Shown one piece after another: positions 2,181-53,652 of a DNA stretch of 64,000 bases; position 1 is the stretch's first letter, and each line of letters starts with the position of its first letter. The notes beneath the pieces are model-generated. The model was not told the origin of the DNA and searched no databases. It worked only from the letters and a program-made list of their open reading frames with translations. The position numbers and the translations under genes are program-made. Source of the stretch: Thermoplasmata archaeon (lineage in GTDB: Archaea > Thermoplasmatota > Thermoplasmata > Lutacidiplasmatales > UBA184); contig JAKIVR010000001.1 of assembly GCA_022750455.1 (NCBI GenBank), positions 26,270 to 90,269 of the forward strand. Direction: 5' to 3'.

Positions 2181-3338
2181 ATGCCGATCGAGAGGGCCGC
2201 GATGCAGCGCATCGCGACCGGGTACGAACGGCCGCCCGTGATCGGCGCCCTGGGTTCCCATTCGGCGATCGACATCGCGGACGGGGCCGCGCACGAGGGG
2301 TTCCACACCCTCATCCTCGCCCAGCAGGGGCGGGAGCGGACGTACGCGAACTACTTCCGGGCCCAGCGCGATTCGTCGGGAAAGCTGGTCCGCGGGTGCA
2401 TCGACGAGACGTGGACGTTCCCGACGTTCGCGGAGTCCGTCGCGCCGTCCGTCCAGGAGAGGCTTCGCCAGGAGAGCGTCCTGTTGGTCCCCCACCGCGC
2501 GTTGAGCTCGTACGTTCCCCTCGAGTTCATCGAGAACGAGCTAGAGGTCCCGATCCTCGGCTCGAGGAACATGCTCCGCATCGAGGAGCGGACGGAGCGG
2601 GAGAACTACTACACGCTCCTGAAGGCCGGCGGGCTGCCGATCCCCGAGGCGATGCCCGGACCGGACGCCATCGACGGGCTGTGCATCGTGAAGCTCCCGC
2701 ACGCCGCCCGGCGCCTCGAGCGCGGGTTCTTCACGGCGGCGAGCCCCGAAGAGTTCCGGATCAAGAGCGAGCAGCTGATCCACGACGGCACCATCACCGC
2801 CCCGGACCTCGCCACCGCTCGCATCGAGAAGTACGTCCTAGGGCCCGTCTTCAACTTCAATTTCTTCTATTCGCCCCTCGTCCCTCGGGAGGATGCGCTC
2901 GAGCTCCTGGGGGTCGACGAACGTCGGGAGAGTTCGCTGGACGGCCTGGTCCGTTTGCCCGCGGCCCAGCAGCTCGAGATGAGCGCGCGGCACCGCATCC
3001 CTGAGTACACCGTCGTCGGGCACGGCACCCTGACGGTCCGAGAGTCGCTCTTGGAAGAAGTGTACCGTCTGGGCGAGCGGTTCGTGGAAGCGTCCCGCTC
3101 CCGCTACGCGCCGGGGATCATCGGGCCGTTCTGCCTGCAGACGTGCGTCGACTCCGCCGGTCAGCCGACGATCTTCGACGTGGCGGTCCGCATCGGCGGA
3201 GGAACGAACATTCACCTCTCCCTCGGGCATCCGTACGGAAATGCCCTCTGGCGGGAGCCGATGAGCTCGGGCCGGAGGCTCGCGGTGGAGGTCAAGCACG
3301 CCTTGAGCGAGGAGCGCTTGGGGGAGCTCGTCACATGA
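2181..3338 (+). CDS. purP: 5-formaminoimidazole-4-carboxamide ribonucleotide (FAICAR) synthetase PurP (archaeal ATP-grasp)
   Basis: N-terminal IGALGSHSAIDIADGAAHEGF matches the PurP signature IATLGSHS-x-L-x-I-x-x-GAK-x-EGF, about 20 aa after the start. Downstream ATP-grasp-like blocks are present. Start set at the M(19) of the track ORF. Confidence 0.7.
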   Translation: MPIERAAMQRIATGYERPPVIGALGSHSAIDIADGAAHEGFHTLILAQQGRERTYANYFRAQRDSSGKLVRGCIDETWTFPTFAESVAPSVQERLRQESVLLVPHRALSSYVPLEFIENELEVPILGSRNMLRIEERTERENYYTLLKAGGLPIPEAMPGPDAIDGLCIVKLPHAARRLERGFFTAASPEEFRIKSEQLIHDGTITAPDLATARIEKYVLGPVFNFNFFYSPLVPREDALELLGVDERRESSLDGLVRLPAAQQLEMSARHRIPEYTVVGHGTLTVRESLLEEVYRLGERFVEASRSRYAPGIIGPFCLQTCVDSAGQPTIFDVAVRIGGGTNIHLSLGHPYGNALWREPMSSGRRLAVEVKHALSEERLGELVT

Positions 3339-37348: not shown

Positions 37349-37942
37349 GTGACCGATCCTCCCTCCCGCCGTGGGCTCCCCCCGACGGCCGGCGATCGGT
37401 GGCGACGCGGGGCGTTCGATCGACCGACGGTGCGGGTCGCGCGCGAGCTGCTCGGCGCTTGGCTCGTCGTCCGCCAGGGCCAGCGCAGGCTCTCGGCCCG
37501 GATCGTGGAGACGGAGGCGTACGTCGCGCGGGACGCGGCGAGCCACACGTTCCGAGGACCGACCCGTCGCAACCGGTCCATGTTCGGGCCGCCGGGAACG
37601 CTGTACGTGTACCGCATCCATCAGGTCGTCTGCGCGAACGTGGTCACCCAGCCCGGTCAGGCCGTGTTGCTCCGCGCCGCGGAACCCGGCCCGGGTCTCC
37701 GGGGGGATACCCGAGGCCCTGGACGGCTGTGCCGCACCCTCGGGATCACGCTCCTCGATGACGGCTCCGATGTGGTCCACGGACGGGTCGAGGTGAGGAG
37801 CGGAGCCCGCCGGACCGAGCGGATCGTGGTCGGGCCCCGGGTAGGGATCTCCCGTGGGGCGCGTCGGAGACTTCGCTACGCTCTCGACGGGAACCGGTGG
37901 GTCTCGTTGCCTCGACCGAGGCGGGTGCGCCCTACCGCTTGA
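37349..37942 (+). CDS. mpg: DNA-3-methyladenine glycosylase (Mpg/AAG family)
   Basis: [18 protein letters not shown]...[41 protein letters not shown]...LLRAAEP matches the Mpg family. GTG start. Confidence 0.8.
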
Positions 37943-38096
37943 GCTTCGCCCAGCTGTACGAGCGCCGCCGGGCCGTGTCACCGAACCCGCACGAGGAGCA
38001 GACCTCGTGTTGGCGGTGGAACGAATGGCTGCCACACCGGCGGCAGCGGATGTGCACGATCTTCCCGCCGCGGCGGGATGGAGTACCCTTTCCCAT
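37932..38096 (-). CDS. rpl37e: 50S ribosomal protein L37e
   Basis: [54 protein letters not shown] is 54 aa with CxxC...CxxC. It is under 60 aa and so absent from the track. A GGGAG lies 8 nt upstream of the ATG. Confidence 0.85.
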
Positions 38097-38114
38097 GAGC
38101 TTCTCCCGCGAAAC

Positions 38115-38327
38115 CTAGGGGGATATGAAGACAATGCTGTCGCCGCGGACCAGGAGAACCCCCGGGCGGGAGGTGACCTCCTCCTGCGCGACCTCTTCCG
38201 CGGCCGAGAGCACCAGGTTCAGGTGCTGGTCGAACGCATCGAGCACCCCTCGGATCGATCGACCGCCCCGAAGCTCGACCAGGACGCGCTTGTGGAGGCT
38301 CTGCTGGAGGAGATCGAGGGGCCGCAT
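38115..38327 (-). CDS. Sm-like archaeal protein (SmAP/LSm)
   Basis: MRPLDLLQQSLHKRVLVELRGGRSIRGVLDAFDQHLNLVLSAAEEV carries the Sm1 and Sm2 motifs. It is directly followed by rpl37e, the conserved archaeal Sm-L37e pair. Confidence 0.85.
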   Translation of the reverse strand: MRPLDLLQQSLHKRVLVELRGGRSIRGVLDAFDQHLNLVLSAAEEVAQEEVTSRPGVLLVRGDSIVFISP

Positions 38328-38356
38328 GGCAACGAAGGGTTCACCGGAATCCGTGG

Positions 38357-38366
38357 CTTAACGGTT
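38357..38366 (-). promoter_or_regulatory. AACCGTTAAG TATA-like element about 30 nt upstream of the Sm gene, overlapping the kinase stop codon
   Basis: The minus strand reads GAAACCGTTAAGCCACGG. The same 10-mer occurs upstream of rps15. Confidence 0.4.
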
Positions 38367-39113
38367 TCTCGGGGGGGATCCGAGCGCGCCCCTCCAGAGG
38401 AAGTCGAGCACGCGGCGCTCTTCGGAGGGACGTACCGGGGGGAGGGTGTCCGACGCGAGCCGTCGAAGAAGTCGGGTTGCCAGGACCTCCGGGGCGGGAC
38501 CCGCTCGCACGGTCCAGACGCGTCCCGGGGCGAGGCGGGGGACCGTCCGCAGCCAGAACGTCCGTTCGGTCCGTCCGATCTGGGCGTGCCGTTCCCTCCA
38601 CGCCTCGGGATGTGTCGTCGACGAGATCCGGGCGCGTTTCGTCGAGAGCGTCGGCGACGCCTTCAAGAAGACGTGGACGTCGGCGAGTCCGAGGGACCCG
38701 ACCCGACCGCGCGGCAACTGGCCCCGAACGTCCCACTCGGGTCCCCAGATCTCCCCGAGCCCCCGGACGTACGTGAGAGGTCCGAGTACCCCCGTATCCA
38801 GGATCACGGATCGTCCCGATCGCTGCCACCGTCGGGCCCGGGCGAACCGACGGGATTCCTCGCGGAGCAGATCCGCTTCCAGCCGGCGGAGCCGCGCCGG
38901 GGTCGGGATCGCCAAGGAGCGCCGGGGTCGCTGCCCCCACCACGCCTCTTCGAGCAACGGCCAACCGGTCCGCGTCGAAAGTTCCCGAGCGAGGGTGCTC
39001 TTCCCCGCGCCCGACACCCCTTCGATCGCCAGGAGCACCGGACGAGGGGGAACGGCGATCGAGGGATTCGCCCGACGGGAATCTTCGCGATCCACCGGCG
39101 TCCGCTTCTTCAA
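38358..39113 (-). CDS. P-loop nucleotide/nucleoside kinase-like protein
   Basis: Walker A LLAIEGVSGAGKSTLAREL, then DTGVLGP. 251 aa; the precise family is undetermined. Confidence 0.5.
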   Translation of the reverse strand: MKKRTPVDREDSRRANPSIAVPPRPVLLAIEGVSGAGKSTLARELSTRTGWPLLEEAWWGQRPRRSLAIPTPARLRRLEADLLREESRRFARARRWQRSGRSVILDTGVLGPLTYVRGLGEIWGPEWDVRGQLPRGRVGSLGLADVHVFLKASPTLSTKRARISSTTHPEAWRERHAQIGRTERTFWLRTVPRLAPGRVWTVRAGPAPEVLATRLLRRLASDTLPPVRPSEERRVLDFLWRGALGSPPRNR

Positions 39114-40513: not shown

Positions 40514-40957
40514 TCAGGCCGGCCCCTTCAACTTCGTGGAGATCTCCACGACGTTTCCGTCCGGGTCCCTCAGGATCGCATTGCGAACGCCCATCATCGG
40601 CCGGTCCGTCGGCGGCGAGAAGAACTTCCTCCCGGCGTCGGAGATCCGACGGTACGCCGCATCGACGTCCGGGACCTGGATGGCGAACACCACGGTCCCT
40701 CCCGGCCCGACGTCGAGCGGGGGCGCGTCGGCGCCGTGGACCTTCGCATAGAATCCCTTCTCGAGCAGTACCAGCCGAACCCCGCTCGACTGGAACTCGG
40801 CCCACGGGGGAGAGCCGTCCGTCTCCGTCGCCAGCCCGATCGTGTCGTGGTAGAATCCGAACGAGGCCGCGAAGTCCGCGCAGACGACCAGGGGTCCGTA
40901 GAGAATGCCAGCCGCCGGGCTCGCCATGCTGTTCACGATCGGGTCCGAGTATTTCAT
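40514..40957 (-). CDS. VOC/glyoxalase-family protein, about 147 aa
   Basis: The C-terminal 147 aa of the track ORF (MKYSDPIVNS...HDTIGLATETDG...GNVVEIS) has the beta-alpha-beta-beta-beta pattern of the VOC superfamily. The upstream 200 aa of the ORF are spurious. Confidence 0.5.
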   Translation of the reverse strand: MKYSDPIVNSMASPAAGILYGPLVVCADFAASFGFYHDTIGLATETDGSPPWAEFQSSGVRLVLLEKGFYAKVHGADAPPLDVGPGGTVVFAIQVPDVDAAYRRISDAGRKFFSPPTDRPMMGVRNAILRDPDGNVVEISTKLKGPA

Positions 40958-41075
40958 CCCAGTAGCCCCCGAATCGGAGCGGAGCGCCCGAGTTCCCCCG
41001 CCGTCCCGCCGCCCCGTCTCGGCCCGCCCACGTCCGGTGTCAAGTAGCTCGAAGGAATCGACCCTCGACTCCTCC

Positions 41076-42413
41076 ATGGCGCAGCGATCCAGGACGAGCT
41101 TGGAGCTCCCTCTCGCGACCGCGCGGCGGTTCGTCCTCGATGCGCAACGGTTCCCGAAGCGCGCGCCTCCGCGGCGTCCGACCAAGGGGGAGATCCTGCG
41201 CTTGGTCGAACATCTCGGGTACGTCCAGCTGGATCCCACCAGCATCGTCGCCCGGAGCCACCTTCTCGTCCTCTGGAGCCGCCTCGGGCCGTACGATCCC
41301 CGGTGGGTGGACGAGCTGCTGGAGAAGGACAAGCAGCTGTTCGAATACTGGGCCCACGAGGCGTCGATCGTCCCGACCTCGGACCTGCCGTACCACCGGT
41401 TCCTGATGCGGAGATATCCGTGGGAACGGGGCCCGTATGGCGTTCGGATCCGCCGGTGGATGAAGCGGAACGCGCCGCTCCGCCGGGAGGTGCTCGCCCG
41501 ATTGCGCTCGGACGGCGCCCTGCCCCTCCACGCGTTCGCCGGCCGATCCCCGTCGGGATGGACGTCGAGGGAGAGGGACACCGGACGGAACGTGCAGCAG
41601 ATGCTGTTCGTCCTCTGGCTCCAAGGTCGGGTCGCCGTGCCTCGCCGGGAGTCGGGCCGGCGGTGGTGGGACCTCGCCGAACGTCACTATCCACCGGAGC
41701 CGAAGGGAGGCGCCCTGAGCCACCGGGCGGGGGCCTTGGGGACCGTGGACCGGGCGTTGCAAGCCCTGGGCGTGGCGACGGAGCGTCAGATCGCGCACTA
41801 CTCGATGTCGAATCGATTTCCCCACGTGGGCCGGGTGATCGAGCGCCTCACGTCGGAGGGCGCCCTGACCCCGACGACCCTGACCGGCGGACGCCGGCCG
41901 GTGAAGGGGCGCTGGTTCGTCCGGACGAAGGATCTCCCCCGCCTCACGTCCGGCGAGTTCGATCGACCGTGGCGGCGCGCCACCCTGCTCTCCCCGTTCG
42001 ACAGCTTGATCACGAACCGGGAGCGCACCGAGACGCTCTTCGGGCTGCGGTACCGGATCGAGATCTACACGCCGGCGGCGAAGCGGGTGCACGGGTACTA
42101 CGCGATGCCCGTGCTCGTCGGCGACCGTCTGGTCGGGACCGTGGAACCGGTCTTCGATCGGCGTCGGAACGTTCTGCAGGTCCCTCAGGGACACGAGAGC
42201 TCCGAGGAGGCGGGGGAGCGCAGTTCGGGAGCGGGCGTCGATCGGGCCGTGCGGGGCCTCGCCGACTTCCTCGGGGCGGATCGGGTGGAGTACGGACGCC
42301 GGTTCCCGGCGGCCTGGCGGGGCCATCTCGTCAGCGGACCGCTCGGGCGCCGCCCGGCGCGCGCCTCGCCCGTCGTCACTCCACGTCGTCGGGGAGGTCT
42401 TGCTCCAGGATGA
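41076..42413 (+). CDS. AlkZ/YcaQ-like winged-helix DNA glycosylase (DUF1006, HTH_42)
   Basis: The block TLLSPFDSLITNRERTETLFGLRYRIEIYTPAAKRVHGYYAMPVLVGDRLVGTVEP matches the YcaQ/AlkZ C-terminal catalytic region. Start set at MAQRSRTSLELPL. Confidence 0.55.
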   Translation: MAQRSRTSLELPLATARRFVLDAQRFPKRAPPRRPTKGEILRLVEHLGYVQLDPTSIVARSHLLVLWSRLGPYDPRWVDELLEKDKQLFEYWAHEASIVPTSDLPYHRFLMRRYPWERGPYGVRIRRWMKRNAPLRREVLARLRSDGALPLHAFAGRSPSGWTSRERDTGRNVQQMLFVLWLQGRVAVPRRESGRRWWDLAERHYPPEPKGGALSHRAGALGTVDRALQALGVATERQIAHYSMSNRFPHVGRVIERLTSEGALTPTTLTGGRRPVKGRWFVRTKDLPRLTSGEFDRPWRRATLLSPFDSLITNRERTETLFGLRYRIEIYTPAAKRVHGYYAMPVLVGDRLVGTVEPVFDRRRNVLQVPQGHESSEEAGERSSGAGVDRAVRGLADFLGADRVEYGRRFPAAWRGHLVSGPLGRRPARASPVVTPRRRGGLAPG

Positions 42414-42546
42414 GCGCCCCCGAGTAGCCGCACGCCTCGCAGACGTAGCGCGGTCCGAGGATCCCCCCGAGGATCGGGGAGATCTGCGTCGACTGGCAGC
42501 TCGGGCAGATCTTGATCGTCTTATGTTTCGCCCGGCGGTGAACCAT
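42376..42546 (-). pseudogene. Small 4-Cys zinc-ribbon gene interrupted by a 1-nt frameshift in a G-run (possibly a sequencing error)
   Basis: The ATG-initiated frame reads [22 protein letters not shown] and then degenerates. The -1 frame continues SPILGGILGPRYVCEACGYSGALILEQDLPDDVE to a stop. Removing one G from cggggagg (about 42474-42480) gives a clean 56-aa CPSC...CEAC protein. It overlaps the 3' end of gyrA. Confidence 0.5.
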
Positions 42547-45085
42547 CGTCGTCCCCCTTCGGCTCGGGCTCGTCGTCCGTCGGTGCCTCCGCCTCGGGCT
42601 CCGTGGGGGCGGCCGGCGTCGCCAGGGCGGCCTCCGCCGGTGGGTCGAGCGCCGCGACGTCCTTCACCGCATCGTTCGGCTCCAACCGGATGATCCGAAC
42701 GCCCATGGTGTTCCGGCCCTGGGAGCGGATCCCATCGACCGGGACGCGGATCGTGATGCCGTCCTGGGTCGTCACGAGCGCCTCTTGGTCCGGGGTGACC
42801 GGCAGCACCGCCACCACGTCGCCGTTCCGCCCGCCGGTCCGGATCGTCCGGACGCCCCGGGCCCCGCGCCGGGTCCGGCGGTAGTCCGCGAACTTGCTCC
42901 GCTTGCCAAAGCCCGTGGTGGTGAGGGTCAACAGGTCGGGCAGCTCGGCGGTCGCCGGGGCCATCGTCACGACCCGGTCCGTCGCGGGGTCCTTCAGGCG
43001 GACGCCGATGACCCCGTATGTCGCGCGCCCGGTCGGACGCACTTCGCTGAGCGGGAACCGGACCAACAGGCCGGAGGCGGTGGCGAGGATGACCTCCACG
43101 TCGTCCTGCGGCAGCAGGGCGACGTTCACGAGCTCGTCCTTCTCCTCGAGGAGGATCGCCTGGATCCCGTTCGTCCGGATGTTCTGGAACTGGTCGAGGG
43201 TCGTTCGCTTGACGAACCCCTGGCGGGTCGCGAAGAGGAGGCTGCCGCCGGTCGCGAGGTCCCGGATCGGAAGCAACGTCTGGACCTTCTCGTTCTCGAG
43301 CAGCTTCGGGAGGAGGTTGACGACCGCCTTGCCCTTCGAGTGGCGGCTTCCCTCGGGGAGCTCGTACGCCTTCAGCCGGTAGACGCGGCCGAGCGTGGTG
43401 AAGAAGAGGATGTTGTCGTGCGTCCGGGTGACGAACGTGCCGGTCACGAAGTCCTCCTCCTTCGTCTCCATCTGGATGAGCCCCTTGCCGCCCCGCCGCT
43501 GGCGGCGGTACTGGTCGAGCGGGAGGCGCTTGACGTAGCCGGAGTTCGTGACGAGCACGACGACGTCGGTGTCGGGGATCAGGTCCTCGAGCGTCCTCTC
43601 GGTGAATCCCGGGACGACCTTCGTCCGCCGGGGGTCGTTGAACTTCTGCTTGATCTCCTGCAGCTCGACGACGATCAGCGCATCGAGCTCCTTCGGGGAG
43701 GCGAGGATCGCCGTGAGGCGCTTGATCAGCTCCTCCTTCTCCTTCGCCTCCTTCTCGATCGACTCGCGTTCGAGGCCGGTGAGGCGCGAAAGTCGCATGT
43801 CCAGGATCGCCTTCGCCTGCTCCGTCGAGAGCAGGAACTTGCCCATCAGCGCCGTCTCGGCCGTGGCGACGTCCTTGGACTTACGGATGATCCGGACGAC
43901 CTCATCGATGTGGTCGAGGGCGACGAGGAACCCTTCGAGGAGGTGCTTGCGCTCCTGGGCCCGGGCGAGATCGAACTTGGTCCGTCGCGTGATGACCGTC
44001 CGGCGCTCCGTGAGGTGGAGCTGGAGGAGCTCGGCGAACGGTAGCACCTTCGGGCGGCCGTCGACGAGGCAGAGGTTGATGACGCCGAACGCCGCCTCGA
44101 GCGGGGTGTGCTCGTACAGCCGGTTGAGGACGATCTCCGCGGGCGCGTCCCGCCGCAGCTCGAGAACGATGGAGATGCCGTGCCGGTCGGACTCGTCCCG
44201 AAGGTCGGTGATGCCGTCGATCCGCTTCGCCTTGACGAGCTCCGCGATGAGCTGGAGCAGGCTCGACTTGTTGACCTCGTACGGGATCTCGGTGATGACG
44301 ATCTCGTCGCGCCCGTCCCGCTCCCGCGTCTCCGCCTTCCCGCGGATGCGCAGCATGCCGCGGCCGGTCGCGTAGACCTCGTGGAGGCTGGTGTCGGCGG
44401 CGACCAGCCCTCCGGTCGGGAAATCCGGTCCGGGGACGAGCTGGAGCAGCTCCTCGACGGTCGCCTCGGGCTTCCGGAGGACGAGGAGGAGCGCGTCGAC
44501 GATCTCCCCGAGGTTGTGGGGCGGCATGTTCGTCGCCATGCCGACGGCAATTCCGGCCGAACCGTTCACGAGCAGGTTCGGGAGCTTCGTCGGGAGCGTC
44601 AGCGGCTCCTTCAGCGTCCCATCGAAATTGTCGGTCCAGTCGACGGTCTCCTTCTCGATGTCCGTGAGCATGTCGTCGGCGATGGCGGCGAGGCGCGCCT
44701 CGGTGTACCGCATGGCGGCCGGCGGGTCGCCATCGATGGAGCCGAAGTTCCCCTGCCCGTCGATGAGCGGATAGCGCATGGAGAACAGCTGGCCCATCCG
44801 GACCAGCGCGTCGTACACCGACTGGTCGCCGTGCGGGTGGTACTTGCCGAGCACCTCTCCGACGGCGCGGGCGGACTTGCGGTACGGCTTGTCGTGGGTG
44901 ACCCCGCTCTCCCACATCGCCCAGAGGATGCGCCGGTGGACCGGCTTCAGGCCGTCCCGGCCGTCGGGGAGCGCCCGTCCGATGATGACGCTCATGGCGT
45001 ACTCGAGGTACGAGGTGTGGATCTCGCGCTCCAGCGGCTGCTCCCGGAGGCGGGAGTCCTTCACGAGCTCGACCTCGGGGCTCAT
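42521..45085 (-). CDS. gyrA: DNA gyrase subunit A
   Basis: [57 protein letters not shown]..., the active-site Tyr region, and C-terminal beta-pinwheel repeats; 853 aa. The track ORF carries a spurious 321-aa Arg/Gly-rich N-terminal extension. No gyrB is adjacent. Confidence 0.9.
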
Positions 45086-46464
45086 GGGGCGGTCCCTCCG
45101 ATCTGGCCGGCGACGACCTTCTCGGCGGCCTCGAGGAAACTTTGCCGCGAGCCGGCCGGGATGGTCGCCCCAGCGGCGACGCGGTGACCGCCCCCCTCGC
45201 CCTTCACGGAACGCGCCGCCTCGCGGCACGCCACGGAGAGGTCGAGCCCCTGCTCCACGAGCCACGTCGTCGCCCGGGAGGAGACCTTCATCTGGGTCGA
45301 GGACTCCGCCGCGATCCCGAAGACCGGATGCCGAGGATTGAGCAGGTAGTTCGCCGCGAACCCGGCCTGCGCGCCGGCGAGCGTCGACTCGTGGCTCTCG
45401 AACCAGTAGATGGAACCGAGTCGCTGCGGGCCCTCCAGCTCGAGTCGTCGGAGCCCGCTCATCACCCCCGTCCGCCACTGAGCCTCGGCCGCCTTCGCCT
45501 GGTGGAGAGCCGTGGGGTCCCCGAGCGCCAGCGAGATCCCGAGACCCGGCTCCCCGATGCGTCCGACCGAGTTCTGCAGGTTCGAGAGGTCCTCGGCGTC
45601 GAACTTCGGGTGCTCGGTGGTCCACGCCTCCCGACGAACCATGTGCACGAACTCGGGTCTCGCCCCTTGTTCTTGTAGCCGTCGCTCCAGTTCGGCCGCC
45701 AGGCGCTCCGTCCCTTCTTTTGACAGCGCCTCCGGGGCGACGGCAGGGTCGATCTCGAGCGAACGAAGGAGCGCCGTACACGCCTCCAAGTTGCCCGAGA
45801 GCCCCCGGAAGTACGGGTCCACGCTCCGCTCGATCGCGTCGGCGATGGTCGGGCCCCGGACGGCGAGGGCGGCCCGGGGGTGCAGGAGACCACGCTCGGT
45901 CGCCTCCTTCACGAGTCGGCCGCTCAGCCCTTGGAACCCTCCGACGTTCTGGCGGTCGGCGATCCCCCCGGAGAGACCCCACGGCGCGTTGTCCCAATTC
46001 TTCGGATCGAGGAAGATCGTGAACAGCCACGTGAGCGTGGCGCCGCACAGCTCGCTCATCCCGTCGACCCCCCAGTTCAACGGGTTCACGTATGCGACGT
46101 GCGCCGGCAGCTCGCCGGGGAACGGAGGGGCCTTGTGGTGGTCGAGTACGATGACGGGGTGAGCGTGCTTCGCGAACGCATCGAGCCAGCTCGCCCCCGT
46201 ATCGATGACCCAGACGGGGCCGGGGGTCGCGTGGAGGAGCTCCTCGATCTTGCCGCGCTCCACGCCGAGGAGCGGCGTCGCCTGCGCCGGATAGCCGAGA
46301 CGTCCCAGGGCGCGCACCGCGGACGACGCGCCCGCGATCCCATCCCCGTCGTAATGGTAGATGATGCGCCAGCGACCGGGGTGGGTGAGAAGGAGCTCTC
46401 GCGCCCGGTCGAACTCCCGGGCGTACTGTGGGTGGCTGACGAAACTCTCGGGCCCCGAGGGCAT
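45082..46464 (-). CDS. Archaeal RecJ-like DHH/DHHA1 phosphoesterase (RecJ/Cdc45/GAN-like)
   Basis: [22 protein letters not shown] and GGGHRVAAG (DHHA1) are present. Start at MPSGPESF (M134 of the track ORF) overlaps the rps15 stop as TGATG. Confidence 0.75.
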
Positions 46465-46919
46465 CACTCCACCTGGAGTACCGCCCGGGTGGCCGAATAG
46501 CTCCACGTCTCGGGGAGCACCTTGTGTTGCCGGTAATAGATTGCGAGGCGACGGATGCGCGACTCCATCAGGTTCAGTCCCCGGCGGTTCGCGAGATCCT
46601 TCGGATTCTGGCTGAGATGGCGCTGGAGCTTGACGACGCGCTTTAGGAGCGCCTCGATGTCCTCGGGGATGTCGCCCTTGATCCCGTTGTCGTGGAGAAG
46701 GGTGCCCAGGCGCTTGCCCGTGACGAGGCGGACGGAGGGGATCGCATACCCATCCCGCAGCTGCGCCCCGACCTGGGCGCTGGAGAGGCCGCTCTTGGCG
46801 AGCCGGACCGCCTGCTCCGTCGCCTCGTCCGCATCGACGGTGACCCACTCGGGGCGGGTCCACGGATACGGGCGCTGGGAGCCGGCACGGCCCCGGCGAC
46901 GGGAGTGGATGCGAGACAC
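46464..46919 (-). CDS. rps15: 30S ribosomal protein S15 (uS15, archaeal S15P/S13e)
   Basis: [20 protein letters not shown]...[37 protein letters not shown] is a typical archaeal S15 with a GTG start. Confidence 0.85.
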
Positions 46920-46952: not shown

Positions 46953-47324
46953 CGCGCGCAAGGAGTTCTGACCACGTAGCAGGGCCGGCCGCGCCGCCTC
47001 TCCGGATCGGGCCGGGGACGGAACTCCGACGGAGGGAACGCCCTCCCCGCCGCTCCCGCCCAACCTACGTCTTTAAGCAACATGGCTATACCGCCGCAGG
47101 GAGGCCGTCGAGGTCCGGTGCGCCACGGAGAGTCCGACCTTCGGAACCCCAGCGTGGAAATTTCGGGAGACCGCCCGTTCCTGCGGACGATCCGGTCGCG
47201 CGCTCTGCGACGTTCCCGCTTCGCCTCGGCCCTCCGGCGTTCGGGTGCCCCGGTCCCCGTTCGATATCGTTCCGATCCGTGCGGTCCCCCGGCGATCTCG
47301 TCGACCCTCGTATGGGGGCGGATC

Positions 47325-50300
47325 CATGCACCGAGGGGATCGCGTCACGGTACGACCTGGCTGGGGGCGATCGTACTCACGCTCCTGCTGATCCTCTCCG
47401 GCCTCGCGTTCCTCGAGACAGCACCTCGCGGGGGGAGCGAGGCGAGCCCACCGGCTCCGTTCGTCCCCGCCCGCTCGATGGTGGCGACCCCCCCGAGCTC
47501 CCCCTCCGTAGCACCCATCGTCGAGCGTGCCGGCCCGACGTTTCCCTCCGCCATCGCGTGCGCGTTGGCGCCCGTTCCCGGTTGCCCGGCGCTGACCGAT
47601 CGCGCCCCCCTCGTGCCCCACCCCCTCGCCTCCGGCCCCTCGTCGTGGCTGAATCTCACACCGAACCCGTACCCCGTCTCCTACCCTTCGGCCCGGCTCG
47701 GCGCCGAAATGACGTACGATCCGGGCGACTCCCGCACGCTCCTGTTCGGCGGGCTCGGGAACGACTACGAGTTCGCGAACGACCTCTGGTCGTTCTCGGC
47801 GGGGAACTGGACGAACCTCACCGCCGCCTCCCCATGCTCCGCCACGAGCTGCCCCTCCCCCCGGGCGTACGCCGGCTTCGCCTACGACCTTCGCAACAAG
47901 GAGGCGGTCGTGTTCGGCGGCCTCGGGATCGTCGCGGGCCATCTCGCCGCGCTGGGGGACACCTGGGTCGACGCCCGCGGGGCGTGGACGAACGTCACCG
48001 CCACCGCCGGCACGCCCCCGTCGCCCCGGTTCGACGCCAGCATGAGCTACACGAGCGCTGAGGGCTACGTGGTGCTCTTCGGAGGCTCGACGATCAACAG
48101 CACGTTCCTCTCCGACACCTGGACGTTCGAGAACGGCCGGTGGTCGAACATCACGGCGAACGAGACCGACGAACCGGGAGCTCGGGCCGGCGCCGCCTTC
48201 GGTGATTCCCCGACCGGCTACGCGCTGCTGTTCGGAGGGTACGGTCCGGTCGGCTTGATCCAGCCTTCGACCGGGACGTGTGGGGAGTTCGCGCAGTACT
48301 GGTTCTCGGGCGGACAGTGGACCCATGCATCGATCTCTTGCGTGGAGTCCCCCCGCGGCCTGACCAGCGCGAACACCACCGGGGAACCGTGCGGCCGGGA
48401 AGGGGCGGCGCTGGCGTGGAGCCCGAAGAACCAGCATTTCGTCCTGTTCGGAGGGGACGGGATCGCGGGATCGGGATGCAACCCGACCGGCACCCTCGTG
48501 GCGCTGAACGATACCTACCTCTACCTCGGATCCCCCGGAGGCGCCTACGACCTCTGGCAGTCCGACATCTCGCCGGGCTGGCCCGCCGACCGGGAGGAGA
48601 TGGCGTACGCGCCCGATTACGCGGACGGCTACGTGGTCATCTTCGGGGGCACGATCGGGGGCGGCGGCCTCACCAACGAGACGTGGCGGTACTATGCCGC
48701 GGTCTCCGCTCTCTTCACCGGTCCGTTGGTGATCGAGAACAGTGCGACCAATCTCGGCTTCCCGATCTTCACCCTCACCGCGTTCGGAGGTTCCGGCAAC
48801 CTGGACTTCATCTTCAATACCACCGGGCTCCAGACCGGGAACCCACTGACGGGTTCGGCCGGCTGTTCCTTGTTCACCGACCAGGCCGGTCATCCGGCCC
48901 CAACGCAAGGCGTCGACGTGATTCGGTGCGCCCCGGCCCCCGGCGCCTACAACATCTACCGGCTCAGCGTCACCGTCTGGGACACGGAGCAGACGACGGC
49001 CCGGGCGTACGCGAACTGGACGTTCACGGCCGACCCGCCGGAGGCGCTCGACCTGTACTCCCAGTTCGCGGGGGCGTTCTACAACGGGATCTCGTTCACC
49101 GACCGATTCTCGGTCTACGCCCAGATCAACAACCAGCCGGTCACCCAGATCACGGGGTCGATTGGTCTCGGCCCCAACCTCAGCTTCTCCCACACCAGCT
49201 CGTCGGACTTCTGGTGGAACGCCTCGTACAACATGGACGAGGCCCCGGCCGGTGCCACCCTGTACGTCGTCGTCGAGAGCGACAACTGGCAGGAGAATGC
49301 GAGCCTGGCGCTCAACGTCGTCAACACCCCGTCGTTCATCACGAACTTCGTCAACGATCCGGGCGTCGTCCAGCAGGAGAAGTCGGTCGGATCCGGGCCG
49401 TTCAACGAGAACTACAGCCTCACGCAGTCGATCGCGATCTCGCTCTCCGCGTTCAGCGTCACGGTCCCGAAGAGCGTCCCGCTCCTCAGTGGCCTCTTCT
49501 CCCTGCTCCCGTCGATGACGGTGACGTTCTACGAGTCGAGCGCCGGGACCGTGATGATCTCGGGCGTCCTCGGGGAATCGCTGCCGGCGATCGACCTCGT
49601 CGGCGGCAGTCTCACGATCTCGGCGTCGCTGAACCTAAGCGGGACGCTCTCCATCACCAACTCGAACGGCGTCGAGAGCATCGACTGGGTCACCGCCAGC
49701 CTGACCGTCCAGATCAAGGGGGACTTCCAGGCGAGCATTCCGATCTACGGGTACACGTTCGACCTCTTCGGCGTGCCAGTCACCATCGGCTTCAGCCTGA
49801 CGATCGACGTCGCGCCGACCATCGCGCTGCAGATGGTGATGGCCCCGGCGAACTCCTCCGCGACGGCGATCGCCGACGGGTTCAACTTCACGATCGTCCA
49901 ACTCCTCGGGGATTTCTCGCTTCCCATCACGGCCGCCATCAACTTCGGGGTCGGGGTCGCCTCGGTCGCCGTCGGCGGCACGTTGACGTTCGACGTGGCG
50001 TTCGGGATCGCGCCCGGCCCGTTCGGTCCGACCGGATTATGGATCAACGGCACGTTGTTCGCCATGGTCCAGGTGCTCTTCTGGAGCGCCACCTGGAACT
50101 TCCTCGGACCGGCCGTCATCTACCACTCGTCGCCGGGGCAAGGGGAGGCGCCACGGTCGGAGGGGGCGCAACCGGCCACCTACGACAACGGCTCGGACGC
50201 GAGCTGGCAGCTCGATCCCCGGAGCTACAACGGGACCGGCTACGACCGCCTCCTCTGGTCCTCCCTGAACTCCTCGGGGGTCGCGATCTCCGACATCTAT

Positions 50301-51584
50301 CCGCACACGTCCTTCGCAGCCGCGAGCGCGTACGGGGGCGCCACTCTGTTCTACTCCAATGACCAGGTCGACCAACCCGTCCGCTCGGGGCTGGCGATCT
50401 CCGGTCTCCAGATCAACGCGAGCAACAACGTCGCCACGGCCCTCCCGTCCCCGGTCGATCCGGGGTTCATCGTCACGGCCCCCCACAGTTCGGCGATGCC
50501 CGACGGAAGCGACTACGTCCTCTGGAGCGCACTTCCCACCTCCCAGGCCGGCGGCCCCTCTCCGGTGGGGATCACCACCCTCGCGCTCCACGGGGCGCGG
50601 TACGACCCGCGAAATGAGAGCTGGGGGCCGGTCCACCAGTTCACCGCCTCCGAGATCGTCCAATCGTCCGGGATCGACACCTCGGGTCCCTCCCCGACGG
50701 TGGTCGCGCTCGTCGCCCCCGGCCTCAGCCCGACGCCGTCGAGCCCGGAGTGGCTGCTCAGCTTCAACGTCACCACCGGCGCCGAGATCTCCAACGCCTC
50801 GGTCCACGGGTACGCGACAATCGTCTCCGTACGCGGGGCCTCCGGTAGCATCCCCGGACGCGCGGTGTTGCAGCTCGTCGCCGGCAACGACTCCCTCCTG
50901 AACCTCGCCGAAGGCTCCGTGCAGGGCGTCGGGTACACGCCGCCCGACAACTCGACCTTGGTCGAGGAGCAGAACGTCGAGGGCAGCGCGACGGCCCTCC
51001 TGCTCCGGTATCGGCAGACCCAGTTGGAGATCGCCGTCCTGTACGATCCGGCCACGAGCCGGACGGTGGCGGTCCTGCCGCTTTCGGGAAGCGTCACGGA
51101 TGCGGAGGCGCTCGCGTCCGGGGGCAGCTTCTACGTGTACGTCGCCAACGGGACCGGGTTCTCGGGCTGGGAGGTCGGCCCCACGGGCGCCGTGACCCCG
51201 CTCCTTCCGGTCGACGTCTCGGGCCTCAACGGATTCGGGATGACGCAGGTCGGGAGCTCCCTGTTGCTCTATGCGCTCGTGCCCGAGGCCGGGGGCGCCC
51301 CGGGGAGCCGCTCGTTGTTCCTCACCGAGGTCGGGGTCGGTCTGCCGGCGCTGACCGCCGGAGCGCCCGCCTCGAGCACGGGGACGAGCCTGCCGCCGGC
51401 CGCGTCCTCTCCGTCACCGTTCAACTGGGCGCTGTGGCTCGGCGTGCCGATCGTCGCCGCCGTGGTCGCGCTCACGACGATCGTCATCCTTCGGAGGCGT
51501 CCACCGACCGCGCCCGCGGCCGCACCACCGTCCGGAGCGACCGCGCCGGAAGCGCCGTTGGGACCGCCTCCGGGTCCGGGGTGA
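47325..51584 (+). CDS. Large secreted Kelch-repeat (galactose-oxidase-like beta-propeller) protein with a C-terminal TM anchor; an apparent 1-nt frameshift separates its signal peptide from its body
   Basis: The body has repeated LLFGG/VLFGG/VVFGG Kelch blocks and a Ser/Ala/Pro-rich stalk. It ends with a hydrophobic anchor (WALWLGVPIVAAVVALTTIVILRRRP) and a Pro/Ala tail. The ATG at 47325 (another frame) encodes MHRGDRVTVRPGWG and then hits a stop. Deleting one G from GGGGG (47363-47367) yields the signal peptide MHRGDRVTVRPGWGAIVLTLLLILSGLAFLETAP. The track start at 47082 is probably spurious read-through. Confidence 0.6.
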   Translation, partial: HAPRGSRHGTTWLGAIVLTLLLILSGLAFLETAPRGGSEASPPAPFVPARSMVATPPSSPSVAPIVERAGPTFPSAIACALAPVPGCPALTDRAPLVPHPLASGPSSWLNLTPNPYPVSYPSARLGAEMTYDPGDSRTLLFGGLGNDYEFANDLWSFSAGNWTNLTAASPCSATSCPSPRAYAGFAYDLRNKEAVVFGGLGIVAGHLAALGDTWVDARGAWTNVTATAGTPPSPRFDASMSYTSAEGYVVLFGGSTINSTFLSDTWTFENGRWSNITANETDEPGARAGAAFGDSPTGYALLFGGYGPVGLIQPSTGTCGEFAQYWFSGGQWTHASISCVESPRGLTSANTTGEPCGREGAALAWSPKNQHFVLFGGDGIAGSGCNPTGTLVALNDTYLYLGSPGGAYDLWQSDISPGWPADREEMAYAPDYADGYVVIFGGTIGGGGLTNETWRYYAAVSALFTGPLVIENSATNLGFPIFTLTAFGGSGNLDFIFNTTGLQTGNPLTGSAGCSLFTDQAGHPAPTQGVDVIRCAPAPGAYNIYRLSVTVWDTEQTTARAYANWTFTADPPEALDLYSQFAGAFYNGISFTDRFSVYAQINNQPVTQITGSIGLGPNLSFSHTSSSDFWWNASYNMDEAPAGATLYVVVESDNWQENASLALNVVNTPSFITNFVNDPGVVQQEKSVGSGPFNENYSLTQSIAISLSAFSVTVPKSVPLLSGLFSLLPSMTVTFYESSAGTVMISGVLGESLPAIDLVGGSLTISASLNLSGTLSITNSNGVESIDWVTASLTVQIKGDFQASIPIYGYTFDLFGVPVTIGFSLTIDVAPTIALQMVMAPANSSATAIADGFNFTIVQLLGDFSLPITAAINFGVGVASVAVGGTLTFDVAFGIAPGPFGPTGLWINGTLFAMVQVLFWSATWNFLGPAVIYHSSPGQGEAPRSEGAQPATYDNGSDASWQLDPRSYNGTGYDRLLWSSLNSSGVAISDIYPHTSFAAASAYGGATLFYSNDQVDQPVRSGLAISGLQINASNNVATALPSPVDPGFIVTAPHSSAMPDGSDYVLWSALPTSQAGGPSPVGITTLALHGARYDPRNESWGPVHQFTASEIVQSSGIDTSGPSPTVVALVAPGLSPTPSSPEWLLSFNVTTGAEISNASVHGYATIVSVRGASGSIPGRAVLQLVAGNDSLLNLAEGSVQGVGYTPPDNSTLVEEQNVEGSATALLLRYRQTQLEIAVLYDPATSRTVAVLPLSGSVTDAEALASGGSFYVYVANGTGFSGWEVGPTGAVTPLLPVDVSGLNGFGMTQVGSSLLLYALVPEAGGAPGSRSLFLTEVGVGLPALTAGAPASSTGTSLPPAASSPSPFNWALWLGVPIVAAVVALTTIVILRRRPPTAPAAAPPSGATAPEAPLGPPPGPG

Positions 51585-51588
51585 GACG

Positions 51589-53652
51589 ATGATCTCTCAC
51601 TGGTCCGGACATCTGCTCGTGGCCGTTGCGACCCTCGCCCTCTTGGTCGGGTCGGGCGTGCCGCTCCCGGGCGCACCGAACGCGACGTTCACAGCTCCTC
51701 TCCACGCCGCGGCACCGACGCAACTCGGGATTCCCCCACCGCCGCCACCGCCGCCGCCCGCTCCGGCGATCGTGCAGACCGAGGGTCTCGCCTGGATCGA
51801 TCTGACGCACTCCGGACCCGGCCACGCCCCGCCCGCCTCCGCGGGGTCGTCGCTCGCCTACGACGCCGCGGATGCCGAGTGGGTCGAGTTCGGGGGGTGC
51901 GGAGTTCCGCGGTGCCCCCTCAACGACACGTGGGTGTTCCGGGACGGCGGTTGGCAGAACGTCACGCGCGGGGGACCGTCCCCGCCGGCGCGCGCAGGGG
52001 CCTCCATGGATTACGACGCGAACGCGCAGGGCATCCTGCTGTTCGGGGGACTCGGGACCTCCGGCGCCCTGAACGACACGTGGCTGTTCCGCGACGGACT
52101 ATGGACGAACGAGACGTACCTCGGAAACGCGCCCTCGTCGCGCGAAGAGGCGGATCTCGTCTTCGACCCGGAACCCGAGACCAACGGTTCGCTCCTCTTC
52201 GGAGGATGCCAGGCCCAATTGTACCCCTTCCCCTGCTTCAACGACACGTGGGTCTGGAATCCCGGAGCCGGTTGGGTGGAGCTCTCCGCGGGGGCAGCGC
52301 CTCCGGCCCGCGGCGGCGGCATGATGGCCTATGATGCCGCGGACGGCTACGTCGTTCTCTTTGGCGGCTGGTACGGGTGCGGCTTGTCGATCTGCAACGA
52401 CAACGACACCTGGGAGTACTACTCCGGCCAGTGGTGGCCGGTCGACCCGGCCGGCCCGGTCCCGAGCGCGCGCGATTCGGGAGCGATGACGTTCGACGCC
52501 GCCTTGGGTGGCGTGCTGTTGTTCGGCGGCCTGAACGAATCGACGCTGACGGACACGAACGACAGCTGGGAGTTCTCGCAGGGAGGCTGGAGCGAGCTCT
52601 CGACGTCCCAATCCCCCCCGGGCCGGGATTCGGTCGGGCTGTCGGTCGACTCGTCCGACGTCCCGCCTCTGCTCTTCGGGGGGAATGAGTACCCCGCCGG
52701 GACCCCCCTCAACGATACCTGGGTGTTCGAACCGGCTCTCGGGGCCGGGATCTCCGGCGCCCCGGCCCACGCCGTGGAAGCCGGCTCGACCATCCTCCTT
52801 GAGGTCGCCGTGGTGGGCGGGAGCGCTCCGTACGCCGTCACGATCGACTTCGGCGACGGACACGACTCGGCGGCGGCGGGCCCCGGGCCGATGTTCGAGT
52901 TCCCTGCTACCTACGACAGCGTGCAGAACTGCACGGTCCGGGTGAACGTCACCGATTCGGTCGGCGTCAACATCTCCGCCACGGCGCCGGTGACGGTGAT
53001 GCGGGGCCCGAGCGTCCAGATCTCGACAGCCACCGTCTCGGGCGACGTCGGCGTCCCCGCCCATTTCACTGGCACCCCGGGAAACGGCTCGCCTTTGCTG
53101 TTGAACTACTCCTGGTCGTTCGGCGACGGAACCCCTCCCGAGACGGGCCCGATCGTGTCGCATATCTTCTCTCTCGCGGGCCCGTACGCCGTCGAGCTCG
53201 GCGCGAACGATGCGGCCGGAACTCCGGCTTCGACCGAGCTCCTCTTCGTCGTCGCGCCCAACCCCACGGTGACGATCAGTGCCACCCCGACGGGACCGGT
53301 CGTCGGGGTTCCGCTCTCGTTCATCGCGAACGTTTCGGGCGGAACGGCTCCGTTCCAGTATACGTGGTCGTTCGGCGACGGCGCCTCGGCGGGCTCCCCC
53401 GGGCCTTCCCACGTCTACGCCACTTCCGGCACCTTCCAAGTGCAGTTGTGGGTGAACGACTCCGCCGGCGGCTCGGCCCACTCCGTTTCGACCCTCTCTG
53501 TGGCGGGCAGCTCCTCGTCGGGCCCGGGACCCTCGCCCGGTTCGGGATCGACCCCGATTCCGTCGGACTATTGGATCGCCCTCGGAGCCGTGGTCGGCCT
53601 CACCCTCGTGGCGGCGGCGGTCCTCCTCTGGAAGCGTCCTCCCCGGCCCTAG
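51589..53652 (+). CDS. Secreted Kelch-repeat protein with PKD domains and a C-terminal TM anchor
   Basis: Signal peptide MISHWSGHLLVAVATLALLVGSGVPLPGAP, followed by a PPPPPPPPAPA linker. It has Kelch blocks (LLFGG, VLFGG, LLFGG) and PKD signatures (YSWSFGDGTP, YTWSFGDGAS), and ends YWIALGAVVGLTLVAAAVLLWKRPPRP. Confidence 0.75.
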   Translation: MISHWSGHLLVAVATLALLVGSGVPLPGAPNATFTAPLHAAAPTQLGIPPPPPPPPPAPAIVQTEGLAWIDLTHSGPGHAPPASAGSSLAYDAADAEWVEFGGCGVPRCPLNDTWVFRDGGWQNVTRGGPSPPARAGASMDYDANAQGILLFGGLGTSGALNDTWLFRDGLWTNETYLGNAPSSREEADLVFDPEPETNGSLLFGGCQAQLYPFPCFNDTWVWNPGAGWVELSAGAAPPARGGGMMAYDAADGYVVLFGGWYGCGLSICNDNDTWEYYSGQWWPVDPAGPVPSARDSGAMTFDAALGGVLLFGGLNESTLTDTNDSWEFSQGGWSELSTSQSPPGRDSVGLSVDSSDVPPLLFGGNEYPAGTPLNDTWVFEPALGAGISGAPAHAVEAGSTILLEVAVVGGSAPYAVTIDFGDGHDSAAAGPGPMFEFPATYDSVQNCTVRVNVTDSVGVNISATAPVTVMRGPSVQISTATVSGDVGVPAHFTGTPGNGSPLLLNYSWSFGDGTPPETGPIVSHIFSLAGPYAVELGANDAAGTPASTELLFVVAPNPTVTISATPTGPVVGVPLSFIANVSGGTAPFQYTWSFGDGASAGSPGPSHVYATSGTFQVQLWVNDSAGGSAHSVSTLSVAGSSSSGPGPSPGSGSTPIPSDYWIALGAVVGLTLVAAAVLLWKRPPRP

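Follow-up and report, generated by a model that had tools for sequence, protein, structure and literature searches.

In this work we analyzed a stretch of 64,000 nucleotides (nt) from a Thermoplasmata archaeon (contig JAKIVR010000001.1, positions 26,270 to 90,269; hereafter the window), and in it a small open reading frame (ORF) that encodes a putative zinc-ribbon protein and overlaps the 3' end of gyrA, the gene encoding subunit A of DNA gyrase. The explanation that best accounts for the evidence as a whole, and that we consider very probable, is that this ORF is an intact gene maintained by selection, that it forms part of the gyrA block and is co-expressed with GyrA, and that its product is a predicted zinc-binding adaptor. 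For the most part the gene is unremarkable; two modest curiosities are its conserved coupling to gyrA and the existence of relatives with ACG as the putative start codon.

An intact zinc-ribbon gene at the 3' end of gyrA

The ORF begins with ATG, occupies exactly positions 42376-42546 of the minus strand, and has 56 codons plus the stop in one uninterrupted frame, on which three independent translations agree. Its features are listed below, in window positions.

42376..42546, minus strand: zinc-ribbon ORF, 56 amino acids (aa), stop included; a single frame, with an identical NCBI protein and homologues in 44 of 44 related loci
42544..42546, minus strand: ATG start codon, 13 codons ahead of the first Cys and aligned with the start of most relatives
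42496..42507, minus strand: first zinc knuckle of the predicted model, C14-P-S-C17 (CPxC); C14, P15 and C17 invariant in 80 sequences
42430..42441, minus strand: predicted second zinc knuckle, C36-E-A-C39; C36 and C39 invariant
42521..42546, minus strand: 26-nt dual-coding overlap, holding the last eight gyrA codons with the stop and the first zinc-ribbon codons
42552..42558, minus strand: Shine-Dalgarno (SD)-like sequence AGGGGGA, 5 nt before the ATG, within the codons of the gyrA acidic tail
42476..42479, plus strand: run of four G's that the original prediction read as five, the source of an apparent frameshift

The conservation of the ORF was analyzed in 80 loci whose products are related to the C-terminal domain of GyrA, 44 from Thermoplasmata metagenome-assembled genomes (61-76% identity, Candidatus Lutacidiplasma silvani included) and 36 from bacteria (about 40% identity); counts given over 45 loci comprise the 44 Thermoplasmata relatives and the window. 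An intact small CxxC...CxxC ORF was found at the 3' end of gyrA in all 44 Thermoplasmata loci, as the original prediction had asked to be checked, versus one unrelated match in the 36 bacterial loci, and the distance from the first to the fourth Cys is 26 residues in 45 of 45 loci. An alignment of 80 sequences of the family shows C14, P15, C17, C36, C39, G43 and E48 to be invariant, and S19, G31, Y34 and Y41 to be conserved at 90% or more. The median pairwise ratio of nonsynonymous to synonymous substitution rates (dN/dS), calculated over 40 core codons, is 0.55, versus 0.96 and 1.55 in the two shifted frames. When the family hidden Markov model (HMM) was run on the six-frame translation of the window, the zinc-ribbon ORF was the sole match (E=1.9e-24). 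An exhaustive HMMER search of 1.84 billion proteins returned 124 representatives at E<=1e-3, and a profile search gave 433 family clusters at 90% identity. Segments of the type CxxC-(10-30)-CxxC occur five times in the window, against 0.27 expected from second-order Markov simulations; two further ones lie in open frames at about 12814 (plus strand, a frame of 137 codons) and at about 9673 (minus strand, a frame of 947 codons). Taken together, these comparisons indicate that the zinc-ribbon ORF is a real gene under purifying selection.

The encoded protein was modeled with AlphaFold2 using an alignment of 59 sequences, which gave a mean predicted local distance difference test score (pLDDT) of 82.9, with means of 93, 83, 92 and 91 for the ten-residue blocks of residues 11-50. 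The model consists of four short strands with floppy termini; its two CxxC knuckles are placed on beta-hairpins and it has a small antiparallel sheet, so that the predicted fold is a zinc ribbon of the generic sort. A Foldseek search with the model returned nothing at E<=0.001, the best matches being the eIF5 N-domain, NrdR, TFIIS/Rpb9, ShdD and ZifS, and the predicted fold has no specific structural relative. The ribbon is flanked by tails of opposite charge, in a layout that is conserved: the 13 residues before the first Cys have a mean net charge of +5.5 in the gyrA-linked clade and +5 in the window, and the tail after the ribbon one of -3.8 and -5, respectively. The window protein carries the complete clade signature (C14, P15, C17, S19, G31, Y34, C36, C39, Y41, G43, E48), together with the start inside gyrA, the +1 frame, the SD-like motif, the basic N-terminal tail and the acidic C-terminal tail that characterize the clade. 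It is the most divergent copy, with 36-50% identity to the others, and it departs from the consensus by Q32P, V33R, D40G, V42S and S44A, with all the invariant positions kept.

It is true that long spurious ORFs are abundant in high-GC sequence and that no curated family is matched above threshold; nonetheless, that this would be a chance ORF in DNA of 69% G+C, and no gene, is extremely improbable in view of the homologues in 44 of 44 related genomes with their invariant Cys, Gly and Tyr columns and fixed 26-residue Cys span, the 124 representatives recovered from 1.84 billion proteins, a dN/dS below that of the shifted frames, and the confident fold prediction.

The original prediction had already placed at this site a small zinc-ribbon gene overlapping the 3' end of gyrA, and this holds: the ATG (42546-42544) sits 26 nt inside gyrA, and the pair CPSC...CEAC is present in the encoded protein. 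In that account, however, the gene was split by a one-base frameshift after '...STQI', the consequence of a homopolymer sequencing error, a pseudogene or a programmed frameshift. The plus strand reads GGGG at 42476-42479, followed by A; when an extra G is put in at this site, the translation matches the earlier text, including its Arg-rich stretch, and only with this fifth G does the break arise. The frameshift is a counting error by the reader, not a feature of the DNA, and nothing in the window is left to follow up as a sequencing error, a pseudogene or a recoding event. Both peptide stretches that had been quoted lie in one frame, and the 56-aa 'fused' protein was given with the right sequence; the deletion of a G that was proposed to obtain it is unnecessary, because the run holds four G's and the 'repaired' protein is the one actually encoded. 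The gene had also been thought to have escaped the gene callers, yet an identical 56-aa protein is deposited at NCBI as hypothetical protein L3K03_00340 [Thermoplasmata archaeon]. As a refutation of its reading the original prediction had named a five-G sequence together with an absence of homologues of the fused peptide; we found four G's and many homologues. There is hardly any probability left for a gene broken by a one-base frameshift, given that the earlier text can be recovered only by adding a G, that the frame is continuous in three independent translations, that the deposited protein has the same 56 aa, and that all the invariant positions of the family are found in the single frame.

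Overlap with gyrA and architecture of the gyrA block

The stop codon of gyrA is located at 42523-42521. The zinc-ribbon ORF lies in the +1 frame relative to gyrA in 45 of 45 loci, and the overlap lengths are all congruent modulo 3. The mode is 26 nt (22 of 45 loci), followed by 23 nt in 10 loci and 29 nt in three, and overlaps of 20, 14 and 11 nt were also observed; in two loci, L035 and L037, the zinc-ribbon gene starts just after the gyrA stop. This stop codon falls in codons 8-9 of the zinc-ribbon gene, which read GGT-AAG in the consensus and CAT-AAG in the window. The clade consensus before the start is GGAGGAcGACG-ATG; a GGAG, GAGG or GGGG motif is present between -17 and -4 in 43 of 45 loci, and a canonical start codon is found at or near the aligned position in 40 of 45, the window included. 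One locus, L040 (JAKBKR010000197.1), has a disturbed gyrA end: at about 2940-3133 the gyrA frame continues past the zinc-ribbon gene without the usual stop. This contig, with a coverage of 2.3x, carries the label 'bacterium' yet is Thermoplasmata-like, and misassembly of the gyrA tail is the probable cause of the disturbance.

In five relatives (L006, L026, L028, L036 and L043), not in the window, ACG is found at or beside the aligned start codon. The change from ATG to ACG is synonymous, GAT to GAC, in the overlapping Asp codon of gyrA, and by sequence the ACG loci span at least three sub-lineages. In L026, L028 and L043 the open frame ahead of the first Cys contains neither ATG nor GTG nor TTG. 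The ORFs of the ACG loci are intact, and the ratio of nonsynonymous to synonymous differences (pN/pS) relative to the nearest ATG-bearing relatives is 0.10-0.77. This pattern suggests either initiation at a non-canonical, near-cognate ACG codon or +1 frameshifting out of gyrA; a third option is that these loci were recently silenced. A general form of the second option, in which at least some of the zinc ribbon is produced fused to the C terminus of GyrA, by ribosomes that shift to the +1 frame in the Asp-rich tail, would agree with the constant +1 frame of the ORF and with the three intact ORFs that have no canonical start before the first Cys, for which pN/pS relative to close relatives is 0.16-0.77. 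We consider such a fusion very improbable: a canonical start is found in 40 of 45 loci, with the window among them, and an SD-like motif in 43; no slippery or pause element was identified; in L035 and L037 the gene begins after the gyrA stop; and near-cognate ACG initiation is a simpler account of the exceptions.

The genes that surround the zinc-ribbon ORF in the window are the following.

42521..45085, minus strand: gyrA, the cistron upstream, for the 854-aa subunit A of DNA gyrase; Pfam DNA_topoisoIV and six GyrA C-terminal repeats
45082..46863, minus strand: RecJ-family (DHH/DHHA1) nuclease-like gene, the first cistron of the block
40905..42413, plus strand: AlkZ-like DNA glycosylase ORF, convergent; context, outside the conserved unit
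about 40514-41200, minus strand: glyoxalase-fold gene

The identity of gyrA is supported by a score of 1107 bits against the NCBIfam gyrA equivalog (cutoff 902). With the archaeal RecJ model, the RecJ-like gene reaches 264 bits, under the cutoff of 360. The TGA of the RecJ-like gene overlaps the ATG of gyrA as ATGA (45085-45082), with GGAGGGA upstream, and a RecJ-like gene precedes gyrA in 37 of the 44 relatives. The zinc-ribbon gene is the last cistron of this RecJ-like-gyrA-zinc-ribbon block, which is conserved in the clade, Candidatus Lutacidiplasma included. Downstream, a convergent dihydropteroate synthase gene is present in 39 of 44 related loci. In the window the AlkZ-like and glyoxalase-fold genes separate the dihydropteroate synthase gene from the zinc-ribbon gene, and the 3' ends of the AlkZ-like and zinc-ribbon ORFs overlap over 38 nt (42376-42413). 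None of the 44 related loci contains a match to either gene of the pair, and there the synthase gene comes immediately next; the pair therefore looks like a lineage-specific insertion.

No EGDSAG or PLRGKxLN motif of gyrB was detected in any frame of the 64-kb window, and gyrB is absent from its annotated large ORFs; separate gyrA and gyrB loci have been found in many archaeal lineages in a survey of archaeal gyrases (PMC9348778). After the dihydropteroate synthase gene, the region 37932-39113 (minus strand) encodes ribosomal protein L37e, which has 54 aa and is itself a small zinc ribbon of the C4 type, an LSm protein of 70 aa and a P-loop protein of the AAA_28 type; the order of these three genes is identical in relative L086, so conserved synteny extends well beyond gyrA. 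On the other side, two adjacent and very large ORFs at 47082-53652 (plus strand; 1500 aa and 687 aa) contain Kelch beta-propeller and PKD domains, and probably encode secreted or surface proteins. A scan for RNA genes, carried out toward a check of the anti-SD sequence, gave no Rfam match in the window.

Proposed expression and function

The arrangement described above suggests that the zinc-ribbon protein would be made from the same mRNA as GyrA, either by SD-assisted initiation or by re-initiation as ribosomes finish gyrA, and would in this way be co-expressed with it. The product would bind one zinc ion through its four Cys and may act as a small adaptor that binds nucleic acid or protein, a role that the basic tail, the ribbon with its conserved Tyr and the acidic tail would fit.

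Translational coupling between gyrA and the zinc-ribbon gene is plausible from the arrangement of the two frames. As in known termination-reinitiation pairs, the overlap is co-directional and an SD-like motif is placed within the upstream gene, and subunits of complexes are overrepresented among overlapping pairs of this kind (PMC6728339, PMC10666635); for pairs with an overlap of 4 or 1 nt, the figures in Haloferax volcanii are 45% vs 5.6% (PMC10666635). The RecJ-like/gyrA junction, with its ATGA, is a classic coupled-pair overlap.

Several observations weigh against the explanation that we favor, and some of them bear in particular on a role in gyrase function. Coupling has been shown for overlaps of 4 or 1 nt, the tested class going from -8 to +10 nt (PMC10666635), whereas the overlap of gyrA and the zinc-ribbon gene is 26 nt and falls outside the 4- or 1-nt class; the only comparably long overlap cited in that work is the 34-nt one of the coat/lysis pair of phage fr (PMC10666635). 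The SD-like motif could in part be a by-product of the Glu and Asp codons of the gyrA tail, and the window copy is off consensus at five of nine nearly invariant positions. With regard to gyrase, the linkage to gyrA is not uniquely retained, given that the RecJ-like gene (37 of 44) and the dihydropteroate synthase gene (39 of 44) are syntenic as well; distant members with the same architecture adjoin unrelated genes, also in Caldarchaeum; and no similarity was found to YacG, the bacterial gyrase inhibitor discussed below.

The distribution of the family outside the gyrA-linked clade bears on the same question. Distant members were found in other Thermoplasmata, Nanoarchaeota, Caldarchaeum and Methanolinea. 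Linkage to gyrA was searched for in six distant or intermediate members and was present only in P0265, which overlaps gyrA by 26 nt and has the same downstream gene, and which for this reason belongs to the clade. The other five adjoin unrelated genes, so a linkage to gyrA beyond the clade was rejected: one lies after a TPR gene, one 3 nt after a Mrp/ParA gene, one 2 nt after a methyltransferase gene and one beside an amino-acid kinase gene, and the last overlaps a PqqD-like gene by 14 nt. Because these contexts are unrelated to gyrase, the comparison indicates that the zinc-ribbon domain is not gyrase-specific and that the coupling to gyrA is a feature of the clade. In some members of the family (P0002, P0004, P0007, P0028, P0044, P0047 and P0078) the module occurs as two to four tandem repeats with acidic linkers, as in P0002 (432 aa), or is fused to hydrophobic segments, which are probably membrane-spanning; these architectures suggest a binding module that is portable and not tied to gyrase.

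The alternative that survives best proposes a general archaeal zinc-ribbon protein, associated with RNA or the ribosome as DUF1610 and aS21 proteins are, whose position next to gyrA is inherited synteny and whose function is unrelated to gyrase. In favor of it are the best sequence matches among solved structures, which are the second pocket of an HVO_2753-like protein (E=1e-6) and an aS21-type protein (E of about 3e-3), the name DUF1610 that JGI gives to many members, the unrelated contexts of distant members in lineages such as Caldarchaeum, and the synteny of the entire block. The probability of this alternative falls only a little short of even. Within the explanation that we favor, a general nucleic-acid-binding role independent of gyrase has an even chance, and a role in the clade as an accessory or regulatory partner of gyrase is a tentative and rather unlikely proposal. 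Its most specific version is still more doubtful; here the protein would be a dedicated accessory or regulatory subunit of gyrase, kept in fixed proportion to GyrA by the conserved overlap, with gyrA apart from gyrB, and would represent a non-homologous archaeal counterpart of YacG and other small gyrase regulators of bacteria that is still made in the ACG lineages by ACG initiation or by +1 frameshift fusion.

In the literature that was searched, no paper links a zinc ribbon to archaeal gyrA or describes their conserved coupling, and protein regulators of an archaeal gyrase were not found either. A small partner co-translated with GyrA would therefore be a concrete and testable candidate. The family itself is well conserved, has no Pfam or NCBIfam model and, within a single order-level group of Thermoplasmata from soil and peat, is always coupled to gyrA.

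Comparison with known families and systems

Membership in a curated family was rejected, given that Pfam and NCBIfam yield only sub-threshold matches to generic zinc ribbons. For the 80 members these matches are spread over about 39 zinc-ribbon models, among them IS1595 (43/80), Zn_ribbon_8 (35/80), Lar (30/80) and HVO_2753_ZBP (7/80). The names under which members have been deposited are equally varied: JGI uses DUF1610 for many of them, and also 'transposase-like', 'rubredoxin' and 'Elf1', and NCBI uses 'hypothetical' or 'TFIIB-type'. The family alignment could seed a curated model that would end the use of the specific names among these.

An obvious analogy for a micro-protein coupled to gyrA is YacG (PF03884), a zinc-finger protein with which bacteria inhibit DNA gyrase. 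Like the gyrA-linked protein, it is small (about 60 aa), has zinc-binding motifs and carries an acidic tail at its C terminus; in YacG these traits come together with a functional link to gyrase. Homology was rejected: hhalign gave a probability of 8.9%, and there is no match to PF03884.

The closest likeness was found in the DUF1610/HVO_2753-like proteins (PF07754), which are archaeal micro-proteins of about 60 aa with C(P)XC knuckles. When PDB sequences were searched with the profile, the top match (E=1e-6) was in a ribosome entry, to the second zinc pocket of a small HVO_2753-like zinc finger; next came, at E of about 3e-3, an archaeal protein of the aS21 type named 'Zn-ribbon RNA-binding protein involved in translation'. 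It is to the second pocket of such proteins, CPxCG...YxCxxCG.xG, that the family profile aligns, with E-values from 1e-6 to 3e-3. In DUF1610 proteins the two pockets are built from four C(P)XCG motifs (PMC11241148), and nothing follows the last Gly-Pro, whereas the gyrA-linked family has a single ribbon with two CxxC motifs and continues into an extra C-terminal strand, 'LxLExD', and an acidic tail. At E<=10 the window protein gives no match to PF07754, and only 7 of 80 members reach E<0.01 with it; with NF011481, whose cutoff is 61 bits, the window protein reaches 13.2 bits. From these sequence comparisons, the gyrA-linked zinc ribbon would be at most a distant relative of DUF1610, and not a member.

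A likeness of a more general kind, without a specific sequence relationship shown, exists with the C(P)XCG micro-proteins of H. volcanii such as HVO_0758, which are also archaeal, have fewer than 70 aa, and carry two C(P)XC motifs and one predicted zinc. The function of these proteins is mostly unassigned (PMC11241148, PMC10716476), and none linked to gyrA has been reported among them, the string 'gyr' occurring 0 times in PMC11241148. Predicted zinc pockets in this group do not always bind zinc (PMC11241148, PMC10716476), and for this reason zinc binding by the gyrA-linked protein stays a prediction. The gene described here, already deposited, belongs to this known kind, the archaeal C(P)XC zinc-ribbon micro-proteins.

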